A program made the position numbers and the translations under genes. Under the pieces are notes generated by a model. The model saw only the letters and a program-made list of their open reading frames with translations. It was not told the origin of the DNA and made no database searches. This document shows positions 4,519-46,048 of a DNA stretch of 64,000 bases, in pieces; positions within the stretch are counted from its first letter, which is position 1, and each line of letters begins with the position of its first letter. Source of the stretch: Escherichia coli (lineage in GTDB: Bacteria; Pseudomonadota; Gammaproteobacteria; Enterobacterales; Enterobacteriaceae); assembly GCF_045037415.1 (NCBI RefSeq), contig NZ_CP173438.1; one strand, 5' to 3'.

Positions 4519-6144
4519 ATGACAGTATTCAACAAATTTGTTAAAAGTTTTAAATCTCATTGGTTGTTGTATCTTTGTGTTATTATTTTTGGTATTACGA
4601 ACTTAGTCGCTTCTTCCGGAGCGCATATGGTTCAGCGATTGCTGTTCTTCGTTCTGACCATCCTGGTTGTTAAACGTATACCATCCCTTCCGCTTCGCCT
4701 GCTTATTGCCGCACCATTTGTGTTACTGACTGCGGCAGATATGAGTATTAGCCTCTATTCATGGTGTATCTTTGGTACAACTTTCAATGATGGATTTGCG
4801 ATTAGTGTGCTGCAGAGTGATCCGGATGAAGTTGTCAAAATGCTGGGAATGTATATCCCTTATCTATGTGCTTTTGCCTTTTTATCCCTTCTTTTTTTGG
4901 CAGTAATAATAAAATATGATGTTTCCTTGCCGACAAAAAAAGTGACAGGAATATTATTGCTGATTGTCATTTCGGGCAGTTTATTTTCCGCTTGTCAATT
5001 TGCTTATAAAGATGCAAAAAATAAAGAGGCGTTCAGTCCATATATACTAGCGTCGCGATTTGCTACCTATACGCCGTTTTTCAATCTCAATTATTTTGCT
5101 TTAGCAGCGAAAGAGCATCAAAGATTACTCTCAATTGCAAACACGGTGCCGTATTTTCAATTATCAGTCAGGGATACAGGTATTGATACCTACGTGTTGA
5201 TTGTGGGGGAGTCTGTACGTGTCGACAATATGTCTTTGTATGGATATACACACTCTACGACACCGCAAGTCGAAGCACAAAGAAAGCAGATCAAACTGTT
5301 TAATCAAGCAATAAGCGGTGCACCTTACACTGCGCTGTCGGTTCCCCTTTCTTTAACTGCTGATTCTGTTTTGAGTCATGACATTCATAATTATCCGGAC
5401 AACATTATTAATATGGCTAATCAAGCAGGATTTCAGACTTTCTGGCTAAGCTCGCAATCCGCTTTTCGGCAGAATGGTACAGCAGTTACCAGTATCGCCA
5501 TGCGCGCCATGGAAACAGTCTATGTCAGAGGATTTGATGAATTGTTGTTGCCGCATTTATCGCAAGCGTTACAGCAAAAGACGCAGCAAAAGAAACTGAT
5601 TGTTCTTCATTTAAATGGAAGCCATGAACCGGCTTGTAGCGCCTATCCGCAATCCAGCGCTGTGTTTCAACCGCAGGACGATCAGGATGCCTGCTATGAC
5701 AACTCCATTCATTACACAGATAGTTTGCTAGGTCAGGTTTTTGAATTATTAAAAGATCGCCGCGCCTCGGTCATGTATTTTGCCGACCACGGCCTGGAAC
5801 GCGACCCTACGAAGAAGAACGTCTATTTTCATGGAGGCAGGGAGGCTAGCCAGCAGGCATATCATGTCCCTATGTTTATCTGGTATAGCCCCGTTCTTGG
5901 GGATGGCGTGGATCGCACAACGGAAAACAACATCTTTTCGACAGCTTACAATAATTACATTATTAATGCGTGGATGGGGGTAACAAAGCCGGAACAGCCG
6001 CAAACGCTTGAGGAAGTGATTGCACACTATAAAGGAGACTCGCGGGTTGTGGATGCAAACCATGATGTTTTCGATTATGTGATGCTCAGAAAGGAGTTTA
6101 CAGAGGATAATCAAGGTAACCCCACCCCTGAAGGGCAGGGTTGA
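4519..6144 (+). CDS. yhbX: putative phosphoethanolamine transferase / sulfatase-domain inner membrane protein YhbX (EptA/OpgE-like)
   Basis: ORF 4486..6144 (TTG); first ATG at 4519 gives 541 aa MTVFNKFVKSFKSHWLLYL...; N-terminal hydrophobic segments then soluble sulfatase-like domain; markedly AT-rich. Confidence 0.85.
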   Translation: MTVFNKFVKSFKSHWLLYLCVIIFGITNLVASSGAHMVQRLLFFVLTILVVKRIPSLPLRLLIAAPFVLLTAADMSISLYSWCIFGTTFNDGFAISVLQSDPDEVVKMLGMYIPYLCAFAFLSLLFLAVIIKYDVSLPTKKVTGILLLIVISGSLFSACQFAYKDAKNKEAFSPYILASRFATYTPFFNLNYFALAAKEHQRLLSIANTVPYFQLSVRDTGIDTYVLIVGESVRVDNMSLYGYTHSTTPQVEAQRKQIKLFNQAISGAPYTALSVPLSLTADSVLSHDIHNYPDNIINMANQAGFQTFWLSSQSAFRQNGTAVTSIAMRAMETVYVRGFDELLLPHLSQALQQKTQQKKLIVLHLNGSHEPACSAYPQSSAVFQPQDDQDACYDNSIHYTDSLLGQVFELLKDRRASVMYFADHGLERDPTKKNVYFHGGREASQQAYHVPMFIWYSPVLGDGVDRTTENNIFSTAYNNYIINAWMGVTKPEQPQTLEEVIAHYKGDSRVVDANHDVFDYVMLRKEFTEDNQGNPTPEGQG

Positions 6145-37615: not shown

Positions 37616-38770
37616 TTATGCCTGCCACGGATGAATAGTTACGCCTTGCACCACGCGGTTTACGGTGCCACTGGCTGATGGGGTATCCGGCGTATTGCCC
37701 ATGTGCAGCGACTGCATCAGTGCAAACGTCTGGGCGTACATCAGGAAGCAAAATGCTTGTTCAACGTCGATAAAGTGACGGGACGGCGGCAGGATGATAT
37801 GCGGGCCAGCGGCGATAACGTCGTTGCTTTCAGCGGTGATGGCGATCACGCGCATTGCCTGGTTGTCACGGCGGAGTTCTGCCAGCAGGTCAAGATCGTA
37901 CTGACGGGTGTAAGGGTGACTGGAGACAAACACCACTACCAGCGTTTCGTCATCGACCAGCGATTTCGGGCCATGACGGAATCCGGTCGGGGAATCATAG
38001 AAGGCCGCCAGTTTACCCGCTGTCAGTTCCAGCACTTTCAGCGCCGACTCGCGTGCTGCGCCCTGTAAGCCACCGCTGCCGAGATAAACGATCCGTTTCC
38101 ACGGTGCGTAACCAAACACACCTTCGCTGAAATCGCCCAGTGAGGTCAGGATCGCCTGGCAACGATCCGCCACGTCGCGGAAGGTTTGGCTGTTGATCGT
38201 CTCAGGTGCGAAAACCGCGAGGCAGCTGGCCATCATGGTGGTAATGCTGCTGGTCATCGCAAAGCCGCGATCGTGCGTTTCTGCGGGCATCAGCAGGGCA
38301 AACGCGTTGTCGCTGTTGATCGCGTTTTGGTAAAGAGCGCCCGCTTCGTTGCAGGTGATCGGCAGGTGATAGCATTCTGGTACAAATTGATTTGCCAGTT
38401 CCACGGCGGCGACGCTTTCCGGGCTGTTGCCGGAGCGACCGAAGGAGATCAACAGTAGCGGATGAGCTGGGTTCAGGTAGTCCATTGGATTGGTGACCAG
38501 ATCGGTGGTTGGTACGGCGCTGAAGTTTTTACCGGTATGGCTGGCGAGCCACGGCGCGATGATGTCACCGATAAATGCCGATGTTCCGGCTCCGGTCAGG
38601 ATGATTTGCAGATTCTCTTTGCGCAGTAACGGTTCAAGGAAGTTATTGAGCGCGGAACGTAGCGCGTCAATGTTGGTGAGTGAACGGATCCATGCGCGAG
38701 GCTGATGGCGGATCTCTTCTTCAGTCCATGTACCGGTTGCGGCAGCAGCAGGGGTGTAATTTTCTGGCAT
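37616..38770 (-). CDS. agaS: SIS-domain sugar-phosphate isomerase/deaminase AgaS
   Basis: 384 aa ORF MPENYTPAAAATGTWTEEEIRHQPRAWIRSLTNIDALRSALNNFLEPLL... Confidence 0.92.
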   Translation of the reverse strand: MPENYTPAAAATGTWTEEEIRHQPRAWIRSLTNIDALRSALNNFLEPLLRKENLQIILTGAGTSAFIGDIIAPWLASHTGKNFSAVPTTDLVTNPMDYLNPAHPLLLISFGRSGNSPESVAAVELANQFVPECYHLPITCNEAGALYQNAINSDNAFALLMPAETHDRGFAMTSSITTMMASCLAVFAPETINSQTFRDVADRCQAILTSLGDFSEGVFGYAPWKRIVYLGSGGLQGAARESALKVLELTAGKLAAFYDSPTGFRHGPKSLVDDETLVVVFVSSHPYTRQYDLDLLAELRRDNQAMRVIAITAESNDVIAAGPHIILPPSRHFIDVEQAFCFLMYAQTFALMQSLHMGNTPDTPSASGTVNRVVQGVTIHPWQA

Positions 38771-38774
38771 AACT

Positions 38775-38945
38775 CAATCCTTAGTCTGATGAACTTGACG
38801 TCGGCGTTGTCGCTTTCGCTTGCCTTTCGTTTCATTTCACTTGGTGATTTCTTTCGTTGGTTAAAATCTATAGAAAAGAAACTGAAAGTTCAATGGAGAA
38901 AAAGGAAATAAAACGAAATCTGTGATCGTTGAAAGAAAAGACAAG
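38775..38945 (-). promoter_or_regulatory. agaS promoter region with CTTTC/GAAAG-rich direct repeats (candidate AgaR operators)
   Basis: GCCTTTCGTTTCATTTCACTT... and repeated GAAA(G) units seen in sequence; AgaR operators are known to be built on such repeats. Confidence 0.45.
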
Positions 38946-38962
38946 GGAAGTAAAAGGGATTG

Positions 38963-39043
38963 CTGGATGCGGCGTAAATACTTTATCCGGCCTTACGGTC
39001 ACCAACCGTAGGTCGGATAAGGCGCATTAGCGTCGCATCCGAC
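38963..39043. repeat. REP/BIME pair between agaA and agaS
   Basis: CTGGATGCGGCGTAAATACTTTATCCGGCC and GTAGGTCGGATAAGGCGCATTAGCGTCGCATCCGAC. Confidence 0.7.
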
Positions 39044-39060
39044 ACCGCTGCACAGATCAA

Positions 39061-39106
39061 AAAGAAAGAAAAAGAAAGGCCTTACGGGGGAAGTGAAGGC
39101 CTAATA
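39061..39106 (-). terminator. Rho-independent terminator after agaA (end of agaZVWEFA transcription unit)
   Basis: minus-strand reading AGGCCTTCACTTCCCCCGTAAGGCCT followed by TTTCTTTTTCTTTC. Confidence 0.55.
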
Positions 39107-39119
39107 AAGGAGCAAACCA

Positions 39120-40253
39120 TCAAAACGAAGCTAATTGACCCTGAATCCAGATTTGTTGCACATGCAGCCCGCTATCCAGCGCAACGACGCTGGCGCGTTT
39201 GCCCGGTTTAAGCGATCCCAGAACACCATCAACACCCAGCATTCGCGCCGGATGCAGCGACGCCATATGGATGGCTTCCGCAGGCGTTACGCCCGTCAAC
39301 TCGACCATGTTGCGCACTGCCGCATCGACAGACAGCGTACTGCCCGCCAGCCCACCGAACGCGGTACGGACAATGCCACCGTGCATCTGCACTTCTTCAC
39401 CACATAACGTATAGTGACCATCCGGCATCCCGGCTGCCTGCATCGCGTCGGTGATCAGTACGATCCTCTCTTTCGCACAGCAACAACAGAGCGACATTGC
39501 CGCCGGATGTACATGATGACCATCGGCTATCAGTTCCAGCCAGGCGCGCTTGTCCGTTAATCCCGCGCCAACCATTCCCGGTTCGCGGTGATGTAAACCT
39601 GTCATCCCGTTATAGCAATGCACCAGGCCGTCGGCACCAGCATCAAACGCGGCACGGGTTTGTTGCCAGGTCGCCGCGCTATGCCCCAGCATCACCCGTA
39701 CGTTTTGCTGTTTAAGATGGCGGATGGCCTGCAATGCCCCTTCTTTTTCTGGTGCCAGCGCTACCACGCGTAAGGTCTGCTGAGAAACGGCAATCAATTG
39801 ATCCAGCTCGGCAATTTCCAGCTCGCGAAACAGCTCCGGCGGATGTGCGCCTTTATTCTGCGGCGTGAAGTACGGTCCTTCGAGATAACTCCCCAGCACT
39901 TGCGCACCAGGCCCACCGCGCTGGCAGCGTAGAGCAATACGTTTCAGCGCCGCATGAATGGTATTAAGCGGCGCGGTTACGGTGGTCGGTAACCAACTGC
40001 CGACACCTTCGCGTGCCTTGTGCATTGCCAGCTTGTCGAGCGCATCCGGCGCGTCATCCATTACATCAACGCCCGCACCACCGTGTACATGGGTGTCGAT
40101 GTAAGCGGGGCAGAGCAGTTCCGCATCGCGTTCAGTCACGCCCACTGGAATCGGTTCGATTGCTGCGATTACACCGTCAGCAATACGCAACTGATGGTCA
40201 TCGAGCCATCCCTCTTCAGTCAGCAGCCTTCTGGCGCGCAGAACGTGTGTCAT
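39120..40253 (-). CDS. agaA: N-acetylgalactosamine-6-phosphate deacetylase AgaA, full length
   Basis: ORF 39120..40274; ATG at 40253 (ATGA overlap with agaF stop) gives 377 aa MTHVLRARRLLTEEGWLDDHQLRIADGVIAAIEPI...; amidohydrolase HxH motif; alternative start at 40274. Confidence 0.88.
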   Translation of the reverse strand: MTHVLRARRLLTEEGWLDDHQLRIADGVIAAIEPIPVGVTERDAELLCPAYIDTHVHGGAGVDVMDDAPDALDKLAMHKAREGVGSWLPTTVTAPLNTIHAALKRIALRCQRGGPGAQVLGSYLEGPYFTPQNKGAHPPELFRELEIAELDQLIAVSQQTLRVVALAPEKEGALQAIRHLKQQNVRVMLGHSAATWQQTRAAFDAGADGLVHCYNGMTGLHHREPGMVGAGLTDKRAWLELIADGHHVHPAAMSLCCCCAKERIVLITDAMQAAGMPDGHYTLCGEEVQMHGGIVRTAFGGLAGSTLSVDAAVRNMVELTGVTPAEAIHMASLHPARMLGVDGVLGSLKPGKRASVVALDSGLHVQQIWIQGQLASF

Positions 40254-40684
40254 ATTCCTTCCTCGACCGGACATTCCTCATGGCAGCGACCAAGTTCGTC
40301 CACCAGACTGGTTAGCCCACGGTGTCCACACTCCAGCGCCTGCACACGGAACTCTTCACCGCTTAACCCTTCGCGTTCCAGCACCATTTCCAGTAATAGT
40401 TGCAAATTTGTGCCGGTGATCACTTCACAGCCCGGTTTTTGCATCGCCAGCGTTGAAGCTACGCGAAACGGCGTGCCGCCCAGCAAATCCGTCAGAAAAA
40501 CAATGCCGTCTTCACAATCCAGTTGGGCGATGGCCTCTTCAAGCTGCGATGTAAGCAGCGCGGTGCTTGAGGTTTCTGGAAAATCGATGGCGATAAACTG
40601 CGATTGCTCGCCGAGGATTTGCTTCATTGCTTTTTCCATGCCGCTGGCAAATCCGCCATGCCCTGTCAAAATAATACTTAACAT
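40250..40684 (-). CDS. agaF: PTS mannose-family IIA component (N-acetylgalactosamine/galactosamine)
   Basis: 144 aa ORF MLSIILTGHGGFASGMEKAMKQILGEQSQFIAIDFPE... Confidence 0.88.
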   Translation of the reverse strand: MLSIILTGHGGFASGMEKAMKQILGEQSQFIAIDFPETSSTALLTSQLEEAIAQLDCEDGIVFLTDLLGGTPFRVASTLAMQKPGCEVITGTNLQLLLEMVLEREGLSGEEFRVQALECGHRGLTSLVDELGRCHEECPVEEGI

Positions 40685-40701
40685 CTAATACCTCATTGTA
40701 T

Positions 40702-41586
40702 TTAAAGGAAATGGCAGAATTTACCGACGATGCCGAGAACCACTGTCACTGCAATCAGGCGCAGCGGACTCCAGCCGCGGCGTACCAGCCAGAACATGGT
40801 CAGGGTGTAGACCAGCGGTAAGAAGGCAGGCATCAGTTTGTCGATAACATCAGCCTGTAACTTAACCACTGCGTCGCCCGCCGTGATTTCCAGCGTGGTG
40901 CTTAAACGAACATAGGTTGCCACCAGCGCGCCGATCACCGTCATCCCAACGATAGACGCCGCATGGCCGACTTTTTTGGTATTTGCTTTAATGAGTGGAA
41001 TAGCCGCCACGCCCATGCGGTAAGCATAATGCGCCAGACCAAAACGCAGCCCCAGGTGCACCACGTTGAACAGCACAATAAAGACGACAGCGCCAAGAAT
41101 AGAGCCTTGTAGCGCGAGGCTTGCGCCTATCCCGCCACAAATCGGCAGTAGCGTTAGCCAGAACATCGCATCGCCAATCCCGCCGAGCGGCGCACCGACG
41201 GCAATTTTGGTGCTCTGAATACTGTTAACGTCCTGCTTAGAACGCTCCATCGCAAGGATAATGCCGATAACAAACGTCACCAGAAACGGATGGGTATTGA
41301 AGAAACCCATATGCCCCTTCATGGCGCGCGCCAGGTCCCGTTTATTAGTGTGGATCTTTTTCAGAGCAGGCAGCAGACCGTACAACCAGCCGGAAGCCTG
41401 CATACGTTCGTAGTTGAAAGACGCTTGTAACAGCATGGAGCGCCAGGCGACGCGGTTGATATCTTTTTTCGTCAGCTCTGCGCCAATGCTCTGATCTTCA
41501 TACACGTTTTCATTGACGCCAGTCAGCAGTGTTTCTTCATTTTCGCTGACGTTCGGCAGGGTGGTTTGATTAGATGCCATCTTCAA
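40702..41586 (-). CDS. agaE: PTS mannose-family IID component (N-acetylgalactosamine-specific)
   Basis: 294 aa ORF MKMASNQTTLPNVSENEETLLTGVNENVYEDQSIGAELTKKDINRVAWRSMLLQASFNYERMQ... Confidence 0.88.
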   Translation of the reverse strand: MKMASNQTTLPNVSENEETLLTGVNENVYEDQSIGAELTKKDINRVAWRSMLLQASFNYERMQASGWLYGLLPALKKIHTNKRDLARAMKGHMGFFNTHPFLVTFVIGIILAMERSKQDVNSIQSTKIAVGAPLGGIGDAMFWLTLLPICGGIGASLALQGSILGAVVFIVLFNVVHLGLRFGLAHYAYRMGVAAIPLIKANTKKVGHAASIVGMTVIGALVATYVRLSTTLEITAGDAVVKLQADVIDKLMPAFLPLVYTLTMFWLVRRGWSPLRLIAVTVVLGIVGKFCHFL

Positions 41587-42349
41587 ATTCCTCTTTCTGT
41601 GCCGCAGGTTGAGTCGGTTCAGGAGATTTACGCAGCAGGTCGATCAGCGCCATCGCCAGCGCAGCGGCAGCAATAGCCAGCACCGGTAACTTGAGCCAGG
41701 CTGCGGCAACAAAGCCCAGGATGAAGTAGGGGATGTAGACGTTTTTCATCATGATTTTCAGCAGCACGGCAAAACCGATTGCTGGCATGATGCCGCCCGC
41801 GACGCCGAGGCCATCAATTAATCGTTGCGGCAGGACATCAATGATGGTTTTTGCATGTTCCGCGCCGAAGTAGATAGGCAGGAAAGCGCAGAGAAAATAG
41901 AAAGTGCCGAGTGCCAGCAGTGCCAGATAGTTCACGCGTTCAATGCCGCGAGTATCGGCGTTCTCCGCCATCCGGTCGCAGCGGGACATCACGCCGGACA
42001 TCACCGAGAACAGGAAGGTAATCCCCATCTGTACTGCAACAGCGAAAGGTACGGCGACACCGACCGCGACATCGGGTTTCACGCCAGTAGTAATGGCAAA
42101 CGCCGTGCCGACGATAGTACCGATAATCACGTTAGGCGGCTGTGCGCCCGCCAGCGGGGCCAGCCCCATCCACACCAGTTCCAGCGTACCGCCGGTTAAA
42201 ATACCGGTATGCAGATCGCCAAGTACCAGCCCGACCAACGGGCCGAGAACCACCGGGCGGTGCATATGGGTTAAGCCGTTAAACATATCCAGGCCAGCGA
42301 TAAAGGCGATAATGCCCAACGCAAATGCCTGCAACAGACTGATTTCCAT
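41570..42349 (-). CDS. agaW: PTS mannose-family IIC component (N-acetylgalactosamine-specific), full length
   Basis: 259 aa hydrophobic ORF MEISLLQAFALGIIAFIAGLDMFNGLTHMHRPVVLGPL...; overlaps agaE start by 17 nt. Confidence 0.88.
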   Translation of the reverse strand: MEISLLQAFALGIIAFIAGLDMFNGLTHMHRPVVLGPLVGLVLGDLHTGILTGGTLELVWMGLAPLAGAQPPNVIIGTIVGTAFAITTGVKPDVAVGVAVPFAVAVQMGITFLFSVMSGVMSRCDRMAENADTRGIERVNYLALLALGTFYFLCAFLPIYFGAEHAKTIIDVLPQRLIDGLGVAGGIMPAIGFAVLLKIMMKNVYIPYFILGFVAAAWLKLPVLAIAAAALAMALIDLLRKSPEPTQPAAQKEEFEDGI

Positions 42350-42359
42350 GATGAATCCC

Positions 42360-42833
42360 TCAAAGTAATTTAAAGAGGTCCACAGCAGGCTCTGTCGGGA
42401 CGCCCTGAACGAAGCATTCCACCCCAGCGGCTTTCAGGTCGTTAAATGCTGCGATATCACCCGCATCCACAGAAACCGTTTTGGCGATTTGTTGCTTGCC
42501 ATTGGCGTAGTGCATATTGCCAACGTTAATGCGATTCACCGGAACGCCACCTTTCACCAGCGTCAGGAAATCGGCCGGTGTTTTACAAACCAGCAGGATT
42601 TTCTGTCGATCGGCGGCGCGATGGATGTTGTCGATGACTTTTTGCAGCGTCCAGAAACGTACGGCGATCCCTTCTGCCAGTACCATTTCCATCAGGTTTT
42701 GTTGTACCGGATCTTCGGCAACCTCATCGTTGGCTACCAGCACCAGATTTGCCCCCGCAAATCCTACCCACTGAACGCCGACCTGACCGTGAATCAAGCG
42801 TTCATCAATCCGACTTAAAACAATATTTGGCAT
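42360..42833 (-). CDS. agaV: PTS mannose-family IIB component (N-acetylgalactosamine-specific)
   Basis: ORF 42360..42869; ATG at 42833 gives 157 aa MPNIVLSRIDERLIHGQVGVQWVGFAGANLVLVANDE... Confidence 0.9.
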   Translation of the reverse strand: MPNIVLSRIDERLIHGQVGVQWVGFAGANLVLVANDEVAEDPVQQNLMEMVLAEGIAVRFWTLQKVIDNIHRAADRQKILLVCKTPADFLTLVKGGVPVNRINVGNMHYANGKQQIAKTVSVDAGDIAAFNDLKAAGVECFVQGVPTEPAVDLFKLL

Positions 42834-42855
42834 AGCGTGTTCCTCTTTGTTTTGC

Positions 42856-44136
42856 TTATTGGCCTTCACAGGCTGTGTGGTACTGCGCCAGGATGTCCTG
42901 AATATGGTTGATAATGAGTTCCCGTGGCGTTGGCTGCAGCTCGCCGGAGCGAACTTTCACGTACTGCAGCGGCAGATACTGACTGATCAGCGGCAGCGGA
43001 ATTGGTGAATCCGCCAGATTACGAACCAGATGAGCGAAAGCGTCATCAATCTGGCTGTCCGGCCAGTAATAGCGCACGCGATCCGAGTAGCTATAACCAC
43101 GCGCCAGACGACGCGCGTTGCCGTCACCGTGGTAGTGGCTTTGCCAGTATTCCGGGCGGTCGAGCATCACGTTTTCCAGCACCTGACGCAGACCAGAACA
43201 GGCTTTTGCTGGCACTAGTTCTTCTTCAATCGCTGCCAGAGAGAACAGAGCTTCACGCAGAGCAAAGGTCAGCGCCGGGCCAACTTTCAGAATGGCAAAG
43301 TGGTCAATCACCAGCTGGCGCAGCGATTGCGGCGTTTGATAATCGGTAGAGTGCGCTTCGAAAATCAGCGTTTCGTAGTTTTCGACCATCTGGCTTAAGG
43401 CGGTCGCTTTGGCGGGCTGATAATCAATAACGTTGGTGTGATCGAATTCGACGCCGGGTTGAACCACCAGGGCAATGATGCGTGGCCAGATGGCATTCAG
43501 ACCCTGCTTTTCAAAAGCGTGACGATGGGCTTCCAGCGTGGCGCGGGCGGCATCCGGCGTGGTGACCGCCAGCTCGCTTAAGGTTTCATGCGCGCCGCCA
43601 GGCACCGGCACTTCGGTACCAATGACATACTCCAGATCGGCTTCGCCAAAATGTTCACGGCAGGTTTCTTCCGCCACTTTCGCCAAACGAGCGGCGCGTT
43701 CGGCCACGATGCCATCGGTTAAGGGAATCGGATCGTCCTGACAGGACATGCTGCAATCAAGGTGAATTTTTTTGAATCCTGCCGCCACGTAGCTTTTAAT
43801 CAAATCATCGGCATTGGCCATTGCCTGAGCGGCAGGCAGATTTTGCCAGCGGTTTGGCCCCAGATGGTCGCCACCCAGAATCAGCGCATCCTGCGGGAAA
43901 TTCAACGAGTCGGCGAGCTGACAAACAAAGCCGCGAAAACCGGCGGGCGTCATTCCGGTATAACCGCCAAACTGGTCCACCTGATTGGAGGTAGCTTCAA
44001 TCAGTAACGGCGTTTGGTTTGCACTGGCGTAGCGGATTGCAGCTTCCAGCACCAGCGGATGTGCGGAACAAACGGCATAAATCCCATTTGTTTTGCCCGC
44101 TTTGTGCTGTCTCACCATTTCTGTCAGATGTTTCAC
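42856..44136 (-). CDS. kbaZ: tagatose-bisphosphate aldolase non-catalytic subunit KbaZ (AgaZ)
   Basis: 426 aa [64 protein letters not shown]... Confidence 0.92.
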
Positions 44137-44384
44137 TTTCCTCTCCAGTTCAGATTACTGCGACATTAATCTTTCGTTTTGTTTCAGTTGATACTGCGTC
44201 ATGGTGAGATAAAAATAAAACGAAAGATAATAGTTTTCTGATCTGATTCACAAAAGAAACATAATGAAAGCCACTGAAACGAGAGTAGCTTGCGCCAATG
44301 GGTAAGGTGGGCTTGCATTTGCTTAATAGAAAGGCGTTAATAGGCAAAACGAAATGAAACGAAAGTTTTACGAAAGGACTTACT
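44137..44384. promoter_or_regulatory. divergent kbaZ / agaR control region with repeated (A)AACGAAA(G/T) units (candidate AgaR operators)
   Basis: AAACGAAAGATAATAG..., AACGAAATGAAACGAAAGTTTTACGAAAGG seen between divergent start codons. Confidence 0.45.
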
Positions 44385-45194
44385 ATGAGTAATACCGACG
44401 CTTCAGGTGAGAAGCGAGTGACAGGCACCAGCGAGCGACGAGAACAGATCATTCAGCGTCTGCGACAGCAAGGGAGTGTGCAGGTTAACGATCTGTCGGC
44501 ATTGTATGGCGTATCTACTGTGACGATCCGCAACGATCTGGCGTTTCTGGAAAAGCAGGGGATCGCCGTGCGTGCCTATGGTGGCGCGTTGATCTGCGAT
44601 AGCACAACGCCGTCAGTCGAGCCATCAGTGGAAGATAAAAGCGCACTGAACACCGCGATGAAACGCAGCGTTGCGAAAGCTGCCGTTGAGTTGATTCAGC
44701 CTGGTCATCGGGTGATCCTCGACTCCGGGACCACCACTTTTGAGATTGCTCGTCTGATGCGCAAGCACACCGACGTAATTGCGATGACCAACGGTATGAA
44801 CGTGGCTAATGCGTTGCTGGAAGCGGAAGGCGTTGAGCTGCTGATGACCGGGGGGCATTTGCGCCGTCAGTCGCAATCTTTTTACGGTGATCAGGCTGAG
44901 CAATCGCTGCAAAATTACCACTTCGATATGCTGTTTCTTGGTGTAGATGCGATCGATCTGGAGCGTGGCGTCAGCACGCATAATGAAGATGAAGCCCGTT
45001 TAAACCGTCGGATGTGCGAAGTTGCGGAACGGATCATCGTGGTCACCGATTCCAGTAAGTTCAACCGTTCCAGTTTACATAAGATCATTGATACTCAACG
45101 TATCGACATGATCATTGTTGATGAAGGCATTCCTGCGGATAGTCTGGAAGGACTGCGAAAGGCTGGGGTTGAAGTGATTCTGGTCGGGGAATGA
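44385..45194 (+). CDS. agaR: DeoR-family transcriptional repressor of the aga regulon
   Basis: 269 aa [62 protein letters not shown]...; N-terminal HTH. Confidence 0.93.
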
Positions 45195-45248: not shown

Positions 45249-45713
45249 TCAATGGTTTTCTTCTGTCTCTTGGGTGAGGCTTTCCCAGTCGGCAGGAGGA
45301 TGTCCTCTTTTTAACATTTTACTGAATACGGTATAGGCATCTGTTTTTTTACCGTAGGTGCGCAGCGTGTTTTCATCGTTCATCCATCCCAGAATGATGA
45401 CTTTCTCTTTTTCACTGTAACGAAAGAAGAGACGATAGCGACCAGCACCAAATTTTACCCGTGACCAGTCTTTATTTTTCCCAGAGCCTAACGACTTGCC
45501 ATGACGGAATGCCGGTGATGATGGATTGACCGTGATATGCTCCTCAATCACTTTATGGACCACCGCCAATAACTTTGTGGCAGCTTTTCTCTGATAATTT
45601 TCAGGATCTTTTCCCTTTAATGCCTCGACTTCGGCAACTAAAGCATCGTAGGTTTCCTGAAAACAGGGATGAGCATATAGCGCCCAACCATTAACCCTTT
45701 GTGGAAAATCCAT
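45249..45713 (-). CDS. yhaV: type II toxin YhaV (ribosome-dependent mRNA endoribonuclease)
   Basis: 154 aa ORF MDFPQRVNGWALYAHPCFQETYDALVAEVEALKGKDPENYQRKAATKLLAVVHKVIEEH... Confidence 0.9.
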   Translation of the reverse strand: MDFPQRVNGWALYAHPCFQETYDALVAEVEALKGKDPENYQRKAATKLLAVVHKVIEEHITVNPSSPAFRHGKSLGSGKNKDWSRVKFGAGRYRLFFRYSEKEKVIILGWMNDENTLRTYGKKTDAYTVFSKMLKRGHPPADWESLTQETEENH

Positions 45714-46048
45714 TATTCGTCGTCGCCAATCTCATCGTCAATGTTGACGTCCATGCCAGCGACAAGTTTCTTTCCTTGTTGAATGTCGAATGGACGAGTT
45801 TTTTGCGGATTGTTCTGGATATCTGCATCCAGAAAACGCAAAAATGCATTCATAGTATGATCCTCCTGTTCATCTCCCAGTCGGCACATAAATACTTGCC
45901 CACCAGGCAGAATTTCGTAATGAATGCTGTCCAGGCCTGGCTTCAGTTTTAAGGCCTCACGCACTGGCGCGGGGATAGTTGTTTGTCCGCGTATAGTGAC
46001 CTTTGATTCAGTGGTCAGTACAGCGTTAGAGCGAGCATTAGCGGGCAT
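45713..46048 (-). CDS. prlF: type II antitoxin PrlF (SohA), AbrB/SpoVT-type DNA-binding domain
   Basis: 111 aa ORF MPANARSNAVLTTESKVTIRGQTTIPAPVREALKLKPGLDSIHYEILPGGQVFMC... with acidic C-terminus; 1-nt overlap with yhaV start. Confidence 0.9.
   Translation of the reverse strand: MPANARSNAVLTTESKVTIRGQTTIPAPVREALKLKPGLDSIHYEILPGGQVFMCRLGDEQEDHTMNAFLRFLDADIQNNPQKTRPFDIQQGKKLVAGMDVNIDDEIGDDE

Follow-up and report, generated by a model that had tools for sequence, protein, structure and literature searches.

The genes kbaZ and agaR of Escherichia coli are transcribed divergently, and a sequence-only reading of the DNA between them had noted several copies of an (A)AACGAAA(G/T) unit in both orientations, likened them to repeats upstream of agaS, and proposed that they provide autoregulation and operon control from a shared operator array. 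The locus raises the questions of which of these units are operators, which protein binds them, and whether they act as a single array. We conclude, with a probability of about 0.93, that the repeats are AgaR operator sites of the E. coli N-acetylgalactosamine/galactosamine (aga) regulon, and that the spacer carries four operators (O1, O2, O3, and O5) in an autoregulated arrangement. The AgaR operator array between kbaZ and agaR is already known and holds nothing to surprise a specialist. AgaR operators of the K-12 aga/gam regulon (promoters PZ, PR, and PS) were reportedly described experimentally by Ray and Larson in 2004, and Leyn et al. are said to have published a comparative analysis of AgaR operators in 2012.

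AgaR binds to the agaR, kbaZ, and agaS promoters, deletion of agaR makes agaA and agaS constitutive, and PZ and PS are induced by GalNAc (PMC3668189). AgaR is an autoregulator (PMC4694137), and a passage of a further article, which cites Leyn 2012, describes it as binding in tandem to several repeats in aga spacers (PMC5018945). An AgaR binding sequence placed at +1 of a synthetic promoter confers AgaR-dependent repression that responds to titrated AgaR (PMC8667592), and an arrangement of CRP and repressor sites has been attributed to the aga cluster (PMC12226905).

The kbaZ-agaR Spacer and Its Surroundings

The window (the whole stretch of DNA that we analyzed, 64 kb in length) contains the aga/gam cluster in an orientation that is reversed relative to K-12, with the annotated order agaI-agaDCB-kbaY-agaS / agaA-agaFEWV-kbaZ / agaR / yhaV-prlF / gar genes. 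The spacer is bounded exactly by the GTG start codon of kbaZ (at 44136 on the minus strand) and the ATG start codon of agaR (at 44385 on the plus strand), and its features are listed in Table 1. A cognate DeoR-family AgaR gene adjoins the sites: its product exceeded the cut-offs of two NCBIfam equivalogs (NF040755, "AgaR," 465 bits against a cut-off of 260, and NF007316, 577 bits against 351), and both the HTH_DeoR (PF08220) and DeoRC (PF00455) domains were found in it with Pfam. By megablast, the kbaZ-agaR region was matched at an identity of at least 95% in 5318 of 5426 complete E. coli genomes, always with the annotation kbaZ next to agaR. A few genomes carried up to 4 copies of the spacer, and 3 of the places were on plasmids; the region is sometimes duplicated or mobilized.

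The spacer is identical to that of K-12 MG1655 at 243 of 248 positions. Because none of the 5 differences falls in an operator, a promoter block, or the CRP site, experimental results obtained with K-12 transfer to this spacer. The operators on the agaS side (OS1, OS2, and OS3) are also identical to those of K-12.

Comparison of window positions 39120-42349 with L082:4202-5126 showed that the kbaZ-agaV-agaW-agaE-agaF-agaA operon is intact in this strain; K-12 MG1655 carries a known deletion that turned agaW and agaA into pseudogenes and removed agaE and agaF. Directly 3′ of agaR lies, as in K-12, the yhaV-prlF toxin-antitoxin pair (45249-46048, minus strand), and a lone AACGAAA at 45419, inside yhaV, belongs to no operator.

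Table 1. Features of the kbaZ-agaR Spacer, Its Flanking Genes, and the agaS-Side Control Region
Feature	Position	Strand	Conservation (mean identity)	Sequence and remarks
kbaZ (agaZ)	42856-44136	-		GTG start; heads the kbaZ-agaVWEFA operon; RefSeq annotation of identical DNA
kbaZ-agaR divergent intergenic control region	44137-44384	.		248 bp, 37% G+C; ORFs and RefSeq annotation
kbaZ ribosome-binding region	44137-44146	-	0.98	GGAGAGGAAA
Variable segment	44147-44168		0.51	
O1	44171-44185	-	0.95	GAAACAAAACGAAAG; 0 mismatches to RAAAYRNAAYGAAAG
Variable segment	44197-44209		0.62	
O2	44212-44226	+	0.96	AAAATAAAACGAAAG; overlaps predicted -35 zone of kbaZ promoter
CRP-like site	44237-44252	.	0.84	TCTGATCTGATTCACA; TGTGA-N6-TCAGA on minus strand; between O2 and O3
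O3	44256-44270	+	0.96	GAAACATAATGAAAG; 0 mismatches to 15-mer
Variable segment	44271-44308		0.28	
Motif-like unit	44275-44285	+		TGAAACGAGAG; Escherichia rows only; inside the 44271-44308 segment
Predicted agaR -35	44313-44318	+	0.95	TTGCAT
GAAAG half-site in agaR promoter spacer	44329-44333	+	0.97 (block 44328-44334)	
Predicted agaR -10-like element	44336-44341	+	0.98 (block 44336-44342)	GTTAAT
O5	44346-44365	+	0.93	AAAACGAAATGAAACGAAAG; four 5-bp units; overlaps predicted agaR transcription start
Variable segment	44366-44372		0.49	
Third unit	44369-44378	+		TACGAAAGGA; ACG part not conserved, AAAGGA conserved
AAAGGA	44373-44378	+	0.92	
agaR	44385-45194	+		DeoR-family repressor gene; NCBIfam and Pfam profile matches
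OS3	38821-38844 (core 38824-38838)	+		GAAATGAAACGAAAG read toward agaS; 0 mismatches to 24-mer
OS2	38873-38888	+		CTTTCAGTTTCTTTTC read toward agaS; conserved block (56-sequence alignment) and repeat D1
OS1	38899-38922	-	conserved	ATTTCGTTTTATTTC read toward agaS; 2 mismatches to 24-mer

Clustering of the Repeats in the Two aga Control Regions

Counted on both strands of the whole 64 kb, AACGAAA shows no excess over chance (16 observed, 13 expected). Its occurrences are clustered: four lie in the 248 bp of the kbaZ-agaR spacer and three within 95 bp upstream of agaS, and the other 248-bp windows in the 64 kb contain at most one each. When the spacer was shuffled with its dinucleotides preserved, the expected number of AACGAAA was 0.14 and none of 5000 shuffles reached four; CGAAAG, which also occurs four times, was expected 0.23 times. 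The units that had been quoted are present in both orientations (AAACGAAAGATAAT at 44218, AACGAAATGAAACGAAAGTTTTACGAAAGG at 44348, and TCTTTCGTTTTGTTTCAG at 44170), the last of them being written as the plus strand and therefore representing a AAACGAAAGA unit on the minus strand.

Motif discovery over both aga control regions, with unbiased 12-mers and up to 2 mismatches, returned variants of AAAC/TGAAACGAAAG as the top common words, and 9 of 15 window-wide matches fall inside the 597 bp of the two aga spacers. The suggested likeness to the repeats upstream of agaS was confirmed by a 15-mer, GAAATGAAACGAAAG, which is identical at 44351 (plus strand) and 38824 (minus strand) and is oriented alike with respect to agaR at the first position and agaS at the second.

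The Operator Unit and the AgaR Consensus

The copies of the (A)AACGAAA(G/T) unit are real, but this 8-mer is only the 3′ part of a longer operator. The operator unit reads RAAAY-RNAAY-GAAAG, with three 5-bp sub-units; GAAAG, the terminal one, hardly varies, and conservation is weaker in the flanks. Judged by this repeat structure, the functional unit is not the 8-mer but an operator of 15-24 bp that contains three to four RAAAY sub-repeats of 5 bp each. The 15-mer RAAAYRNAAYGAAAG, with up to 1 mismatch, has 7 matches in the 64 kb (0.52 expected), all of them in the two aga control regions. The AgaR consensus published by Ray and Larson in 2004 is said to be the 24-mer WRMMTTTCRTTTYRTTTYNYTTKK. 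With up to 3 mismatches, this 24-mer has 6 matches (0.17 expected), of which two are perfect (44345-44368 and 38821-38844) and four are near; O1 is matched at 44168-44191 with 3 mismatches and O3 at 44250-44273 with 2, and O2 seldom passes this threshold (9 of 74 sequences). All consensus matches lie within 44168-44368 and 38821-39081, with none elsewhere in the 64 kb, and sites are found in the promoter regions of agaR, kbaZ (agaZ), and agaS.

The three strings quoted in the sequence-only reading are present in the spacer, but its list was incomplete: the CRP-like site was missed, and O3 was absent because its sequence, GAAACATAATGAAAG, contains no CG.

An AgaR binding sequence designated PkbaZ has been reported as CTTTCGTTTCATTTTCGTTT (PMC8667592, Table S3). 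The reverse complement of O5 (minus strand, 44365-44346) is CTTTCGTTTCATTTCGTTTT, which is nearly identical to this published 20-mer with a shift of one base (PMC8667592). If the main binder were instead a paralogous DeoR-type repressor (TagR- or GatR-like) or an A-tract-preferring nucleoid protein, this would be in keeping with the similar words used by related DeoR regulators, such as the TagR operators, which read CTTTCAAAATGAAAG (PMC12226905), and with the presence in some Citrobacter of a second AgaR-like gene and a similar site. We consider another main binder very unlikely: across genera, the motif is strictly tied to the presence of agaR and the aga genes, direct binding of AgaR and derepression upon deletion of agaR are found in the literature (PMC4694137, PMC5018945, PMC3668189), and a synthetic promoter carrying the O5 sequence is responsive to AgaR titration (PMC8667592).

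Conservation across Enterobacterial Genera

A search for AgaR in 100,044 species genomes returned 80 loci, with AgaR identities of 81-99%, from genera including Escherichia, Klebsiella, Kluyvera, Citrobacter, Raoultella, Enterobacter, Lelliottia, Kosakonia, Mixta, and Pantoea, as well as Salmonella arizonae and diarizonae, Buttiauxella, Yersinia, Serratia, Cedecea, and Ewingella. We used the 73 loci in which kbaZ and agaR are divergent neighbors and both N termini are present; these represent more than 20 enterobacterial genera. The earlier proposal had been made to hinge on conservation of the repeats in orthologous regions, and the operators proved to be conserved in the 73 spacers, from Escherichia to Yersinia and Serratia. 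In these 73 orthologous spacers, the mean identity to the window base was 0.95 in operator columns and 0.64 in the remaining columns (Mann-Whitney p = 1e-11). Three to five matches to the 15-mer were found in 69 of the 73 orthologous spacers. The 15-mer occurred at a density of 16 per kb within the spacer; the density in 860 kb of flanking DNA was 0.18 per kb, with nearly all of the matches there located upstream of agaS.

The geometry of the spacer is also conserved. Of 74 sequences (the window and 73 orthologues), 72 have a spacer of 245-251 bp, and the offsets between O1 and O2 (41 bp) and between O2 and O3 (44 bp) are the same in every orthologue in which both sites were scored. The offset between O3 and O5 is 91-98 bp among genera and mostly 95-96 bp, which corresponds to about 9 helical turns.

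The low G+C content of the spacer (37%) and the near-expected number of AACGAAA in the whole window would suit an explanation in which the repeats are low-complexity, A/T-rich promoter sequence that arose by chance and has no specific function. We regard this explanation as having next to no probability, since local dinucleotide shuffles never reached the observed count, all consensus matches lie in aga control regions, and conservation across more than 20 genera is about 95% at the sites but does not extend to the neighboring bases.

Conservation also served to reject candidate operators within the spacer. The unit TGAAACGAGAG at 44275-44285 is found in Escherichia only and is probably not functional. 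The unit TACGAAAG at 44369-44376, which had been taken for a third copy of the repeat, was rejected for lack of conservation across genera: its A, C, and G columns have a conservation of 0.2-0.5, and only the AAAGGA part is kept (0.7-1.0), with TGAAAGGA, CTAAGGA, or TAAAGGA at this position in other genera. From its sequence, AAAGGA at 44373-44378 is probably the Shine-Dalgarno sequence, or ribosome-binding site, of agaR.

Predicted Promoters and the CRP-like Site

Read toward kbaZ, the elements follow in the order O5, about 95 bp, O3, the CRP-like site (TGTGAATCAGATCAGA), O2, CAGTATC, O1, the ribosome-binding site, and GTG. The conserved CAGTATC offers a -10 candidate (CAGTAT at 44196-44191), around which O1 and O2 form an inverted pair with 16-nt arms that are 94% complementary. 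From this predicted -10, we infer that transcription of kbaZ would start near 44183, so that O1, which lies downstream of the -10, would cover the start, and O2 would cover the -35 zone; on the same basis, CRP would be centered near -61, a class I position, at the kbaZ promoter. The CRP-like site has 1 mismatch to TGTGA-N6-TCACA, at which stringency the window contains 4 matches against 2 expected. Most orthologues keep its TCACA half, a few have TCGCA instead, and its left half varies.

On the other side of the spacer, TTGCAT, a 17-bp spacer, and GTTAAT constitute a predicted agaR promoter with a start near 44348. This predicted start lies inside O5, which is the geometry expected for autorepression. 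O5 is the autoregulatory site of agaR.

A scan with the sigma-70 consensus did not call the conserved promoter-like blocks of the spacer, and it called no promoter upstream of agaS. Its plus-strand matches at 44188-44216 and 44204-44231 were rejected as promoters: they lie off the conserved -35/-10-like blocks, and their GATAAT is the conserved 3′ flank of O2. A terminator-like hairpin at 44291-44268 was also rejected, as it lies inside the nonconserved segment.

The agaS-Side Control Region

Upstream of agaS, the order is OS1, the predicted -35 TTGAAC (38894-38889), OS2 in the promoter spacer, the predicted -10 TAGATT (38870-38865), and OS3, which has the opposite orientation and lies downstream of the predicted agaS promoter. 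Transcription of agaS is predicted to start near 38858 on the minus strand. OS3 is conserved, at the same offset, in 52 of 56 orthologues. Three further candidates were rejected as extra sites, each being present in Escherichia only: AACGAAAGA at 38850-38858, GCGAAAG at 38813-38819, and the distal match to the 24-mer at 39058-39081.

Directly before OS1, nearly all genera have a GATCACA half-site (38920-38926, minus strand), which could be half of a CRP site; the left half is not conserved. The E. coli agaA-agaS spacer (349 bp) contains REP/BIME-like palindromic units of the GCCGGATAAGGCG type (window positions 38960-39085), and it matches the Rfam family naRNA4 weakly at 39011-39081, where 26 bits fall short of the gathering score of 59.5. 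This insert is absent from the other genera, whose agaA-agaS spacers are about 245-305 bp long.

In O1, O5, and OS3, the promoter-proximal sites, GAAA...GAAAG runs in the same sense as the gene that follows, consistently for kbaZ, agaR, and agaS, and an identical 15-mer is present in the agaR and agaS leaders. These are properties that would be expected if the three sites also served as an RNA-level element in the mRNA leaders. There is only a slight chance of such a role: an Rfam scan of 38600-44600 at E-values of up to 1 found no family that matches the kbaZ-agaR spacer and only the REP-like, sub-threshold naRNA4 matches in the agaA-agaS spacer, O2, O3, OS1, and OS2 carry the same motif at positions that are not transcribed in that sense, and a DNA operator accounts for all copies.

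A Model for AgaR Regulation

As a DNA operator array, these sites suggest the following mechanism. Three operators would surround the kbaZ promoter: O1 would follow the -10 immediately, O2 would cover the -35 zone, and O3 would lie on the far side of the CRP site. A fourth, O5, would cover the start of the agaR transcript. In the absence of inducer, oligomeric AgaR bound to these operators would block RNA polymerase at both divergent promoters, and agaR would therefore be autoregulated; AgaR would probably also interfere with the activation of kbaZ by CRP. During growth on GalNAc or GalN, AgaR would be released by an inducer derived from these sugars. The agaS promoter would be controlled by the same kind of operator array.

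The proposal of autoregulation and operon control from a shared array is supported by the literature as regards AgaR binding and autoregulation (PMC3668189, PMC4694137), and only in part as regards the sharing of the array. The operators fall into two groups about 95 bp apart, one (O1-O3) located at the kbaZ promoter and the other (O5) at the agaR promoter, and the two may cooperate, perhaps by looping. The constrained length of the spacer and the separation of about 9 helical turns hint that O5 may cooperate with O1-O3; we draw no conclusion on this point because of the 91-98-bp spread and the relatedness of the sequences.

A possible alternative, to which we give tentative credence, is that there are two independent sets of AgaR operators, in which O1-O3 serve the kbaZ promoter alone, O5 serves the agaR promoter alone, and neither looping nor cooperativity connects them. 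Each set lies on its own predicted promoter, the 38-bp segment that parts O3 from O5 is unconserved (identity 0.28), and the spacing of 91-98 bp among genera is not locked to one helical phase, all of which is consistent with independence. The near-constant length of the spacer (245-251 bp in 72 of 74) and the prevalence of the 95-96-bp spacing, about 9 helical turns, argue for a connection between the two sets, as does the attribution of the O5 sequence to PkbaZ (PMC8667592, Table S3); moreover, repressors of the DeoR family are oligomers that often bridge several operators (see also PMC12226905).

At the other extreme, the four operators and the CRP site might constitute one complex of fixed geometry, in which one AgaR oligomer, by looping the DNA, would hold both promoters, and possibly CRP, locked together. 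This stronger proposal, which we consider doubtful, is suggested by the invariant 41- and 44-bp offsets, the position of the CRP site between O2 and O3, the distance of about 95-96 bp between O3 and O5, and the combination of free sequence with constrained length. Within such a complex, the 5-bp sub-repeats would allow alternative binding registers.

Comparison with Known Systems

The AgaR operator array in the window shares its locus, repressor gene, three control regions, and consensus with the K-12 aga/gam AgaR operators, and its binding sequence is almost identical to the experimental one. It differs from K-12, where kbaZ-agaVWEFA is deleted in part, in nothing else of substance. The extra units confined to Escherichia and the cross-genus spacing data add detail to the K-12 system and do not amount to a different system.

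E. coli DeoR and GlpR resemble AgaR in being oligomeric, in having an N-terminal HTH_DeoR domain and a C-terminal sugar-phosphate sensor domain, and in using several spaced operators at a catabolic, CRP-dependent promoter, but their operator sequences are unrelated to those of AgaR. Looping is established for E. coli DeoR. Among close relatives of AgaR, we found no solved complex with DNA, only the structure of the DeoR C-terminal domain (7L6L).

The TagR/CRP region of the tagatose cluster of E. coli Nissle 1917 is also a divergent regulator/operon spacer with a DeoR-family repressor, and its operators contain CTTTC...GAAAG words, with one operator over the transcription start and a CRP site upstream of the -35 (PMC12226905). 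It differs in its repressor and inducer and in having two operators rather than four or more, and its sites are palindrome-like (CTTTC-N-GAAAG), whereas the aga sites consist of 5-bp direct sub-repeats (PMC12226905).

The sequence-only reading recognized a genuine operator array and connected it with the further copy found upstream of agaS. Our analysis leaves the understanding of aga regulation as it was and adds a fine-scale comparative map. Derived from the cross-genus footprint, this compact map of the aga control regions shows the conserved cores, the invariant 41- and 44-bp spacings, and the constraint on spacer length; it also marks the decoy units confined to Escherichia and the predicted promoter elements, and it could guide work with reporters or synthetic promoters.

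Variants of the Locus in Other Genera

Four loci from Serratia spp. and Phytobacter massiliensis (L053, L062, L074, and L076) keep the layout and length of the spacer and have degenerate operators (for example, GCATGAAACGAAAGG and GAAACAAAGG) that do not reach the 15-mer threshold, perhaps as a result of drift or of co-evolution of AgaR specificity. The spacer of Citrobacter sp. NCU1 (L017, about 5732-6000) is 269 bp long, against about 250 bp, and the GTTTT sub-unit of its O1 is repeated about seven times. Here the 5-bp operator sub-repeat has apparently expanded by slippage where transcription of kbaZ is predicted to start.

A second DeoR gene is present directly downstream of agaR in several Citrobacter-type loci (L028:7067-7902 and also L014, L019, L031, L039, and L061). 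Its product is a protein of 256 aa that scores 367 bits against the AgaR equivalog NF040755 (cut-off 260), and an AgaR-like 15-mer, AAAAGAAAACGAAAG, lies just upstream of the gene. Two genes follow on the other strand: one is ROK-kinase-like, and the other matches oxidoreductases only weakly, below the cut-offs. The second DeoR gene may belong to a paralogous regulon with a similar operator.
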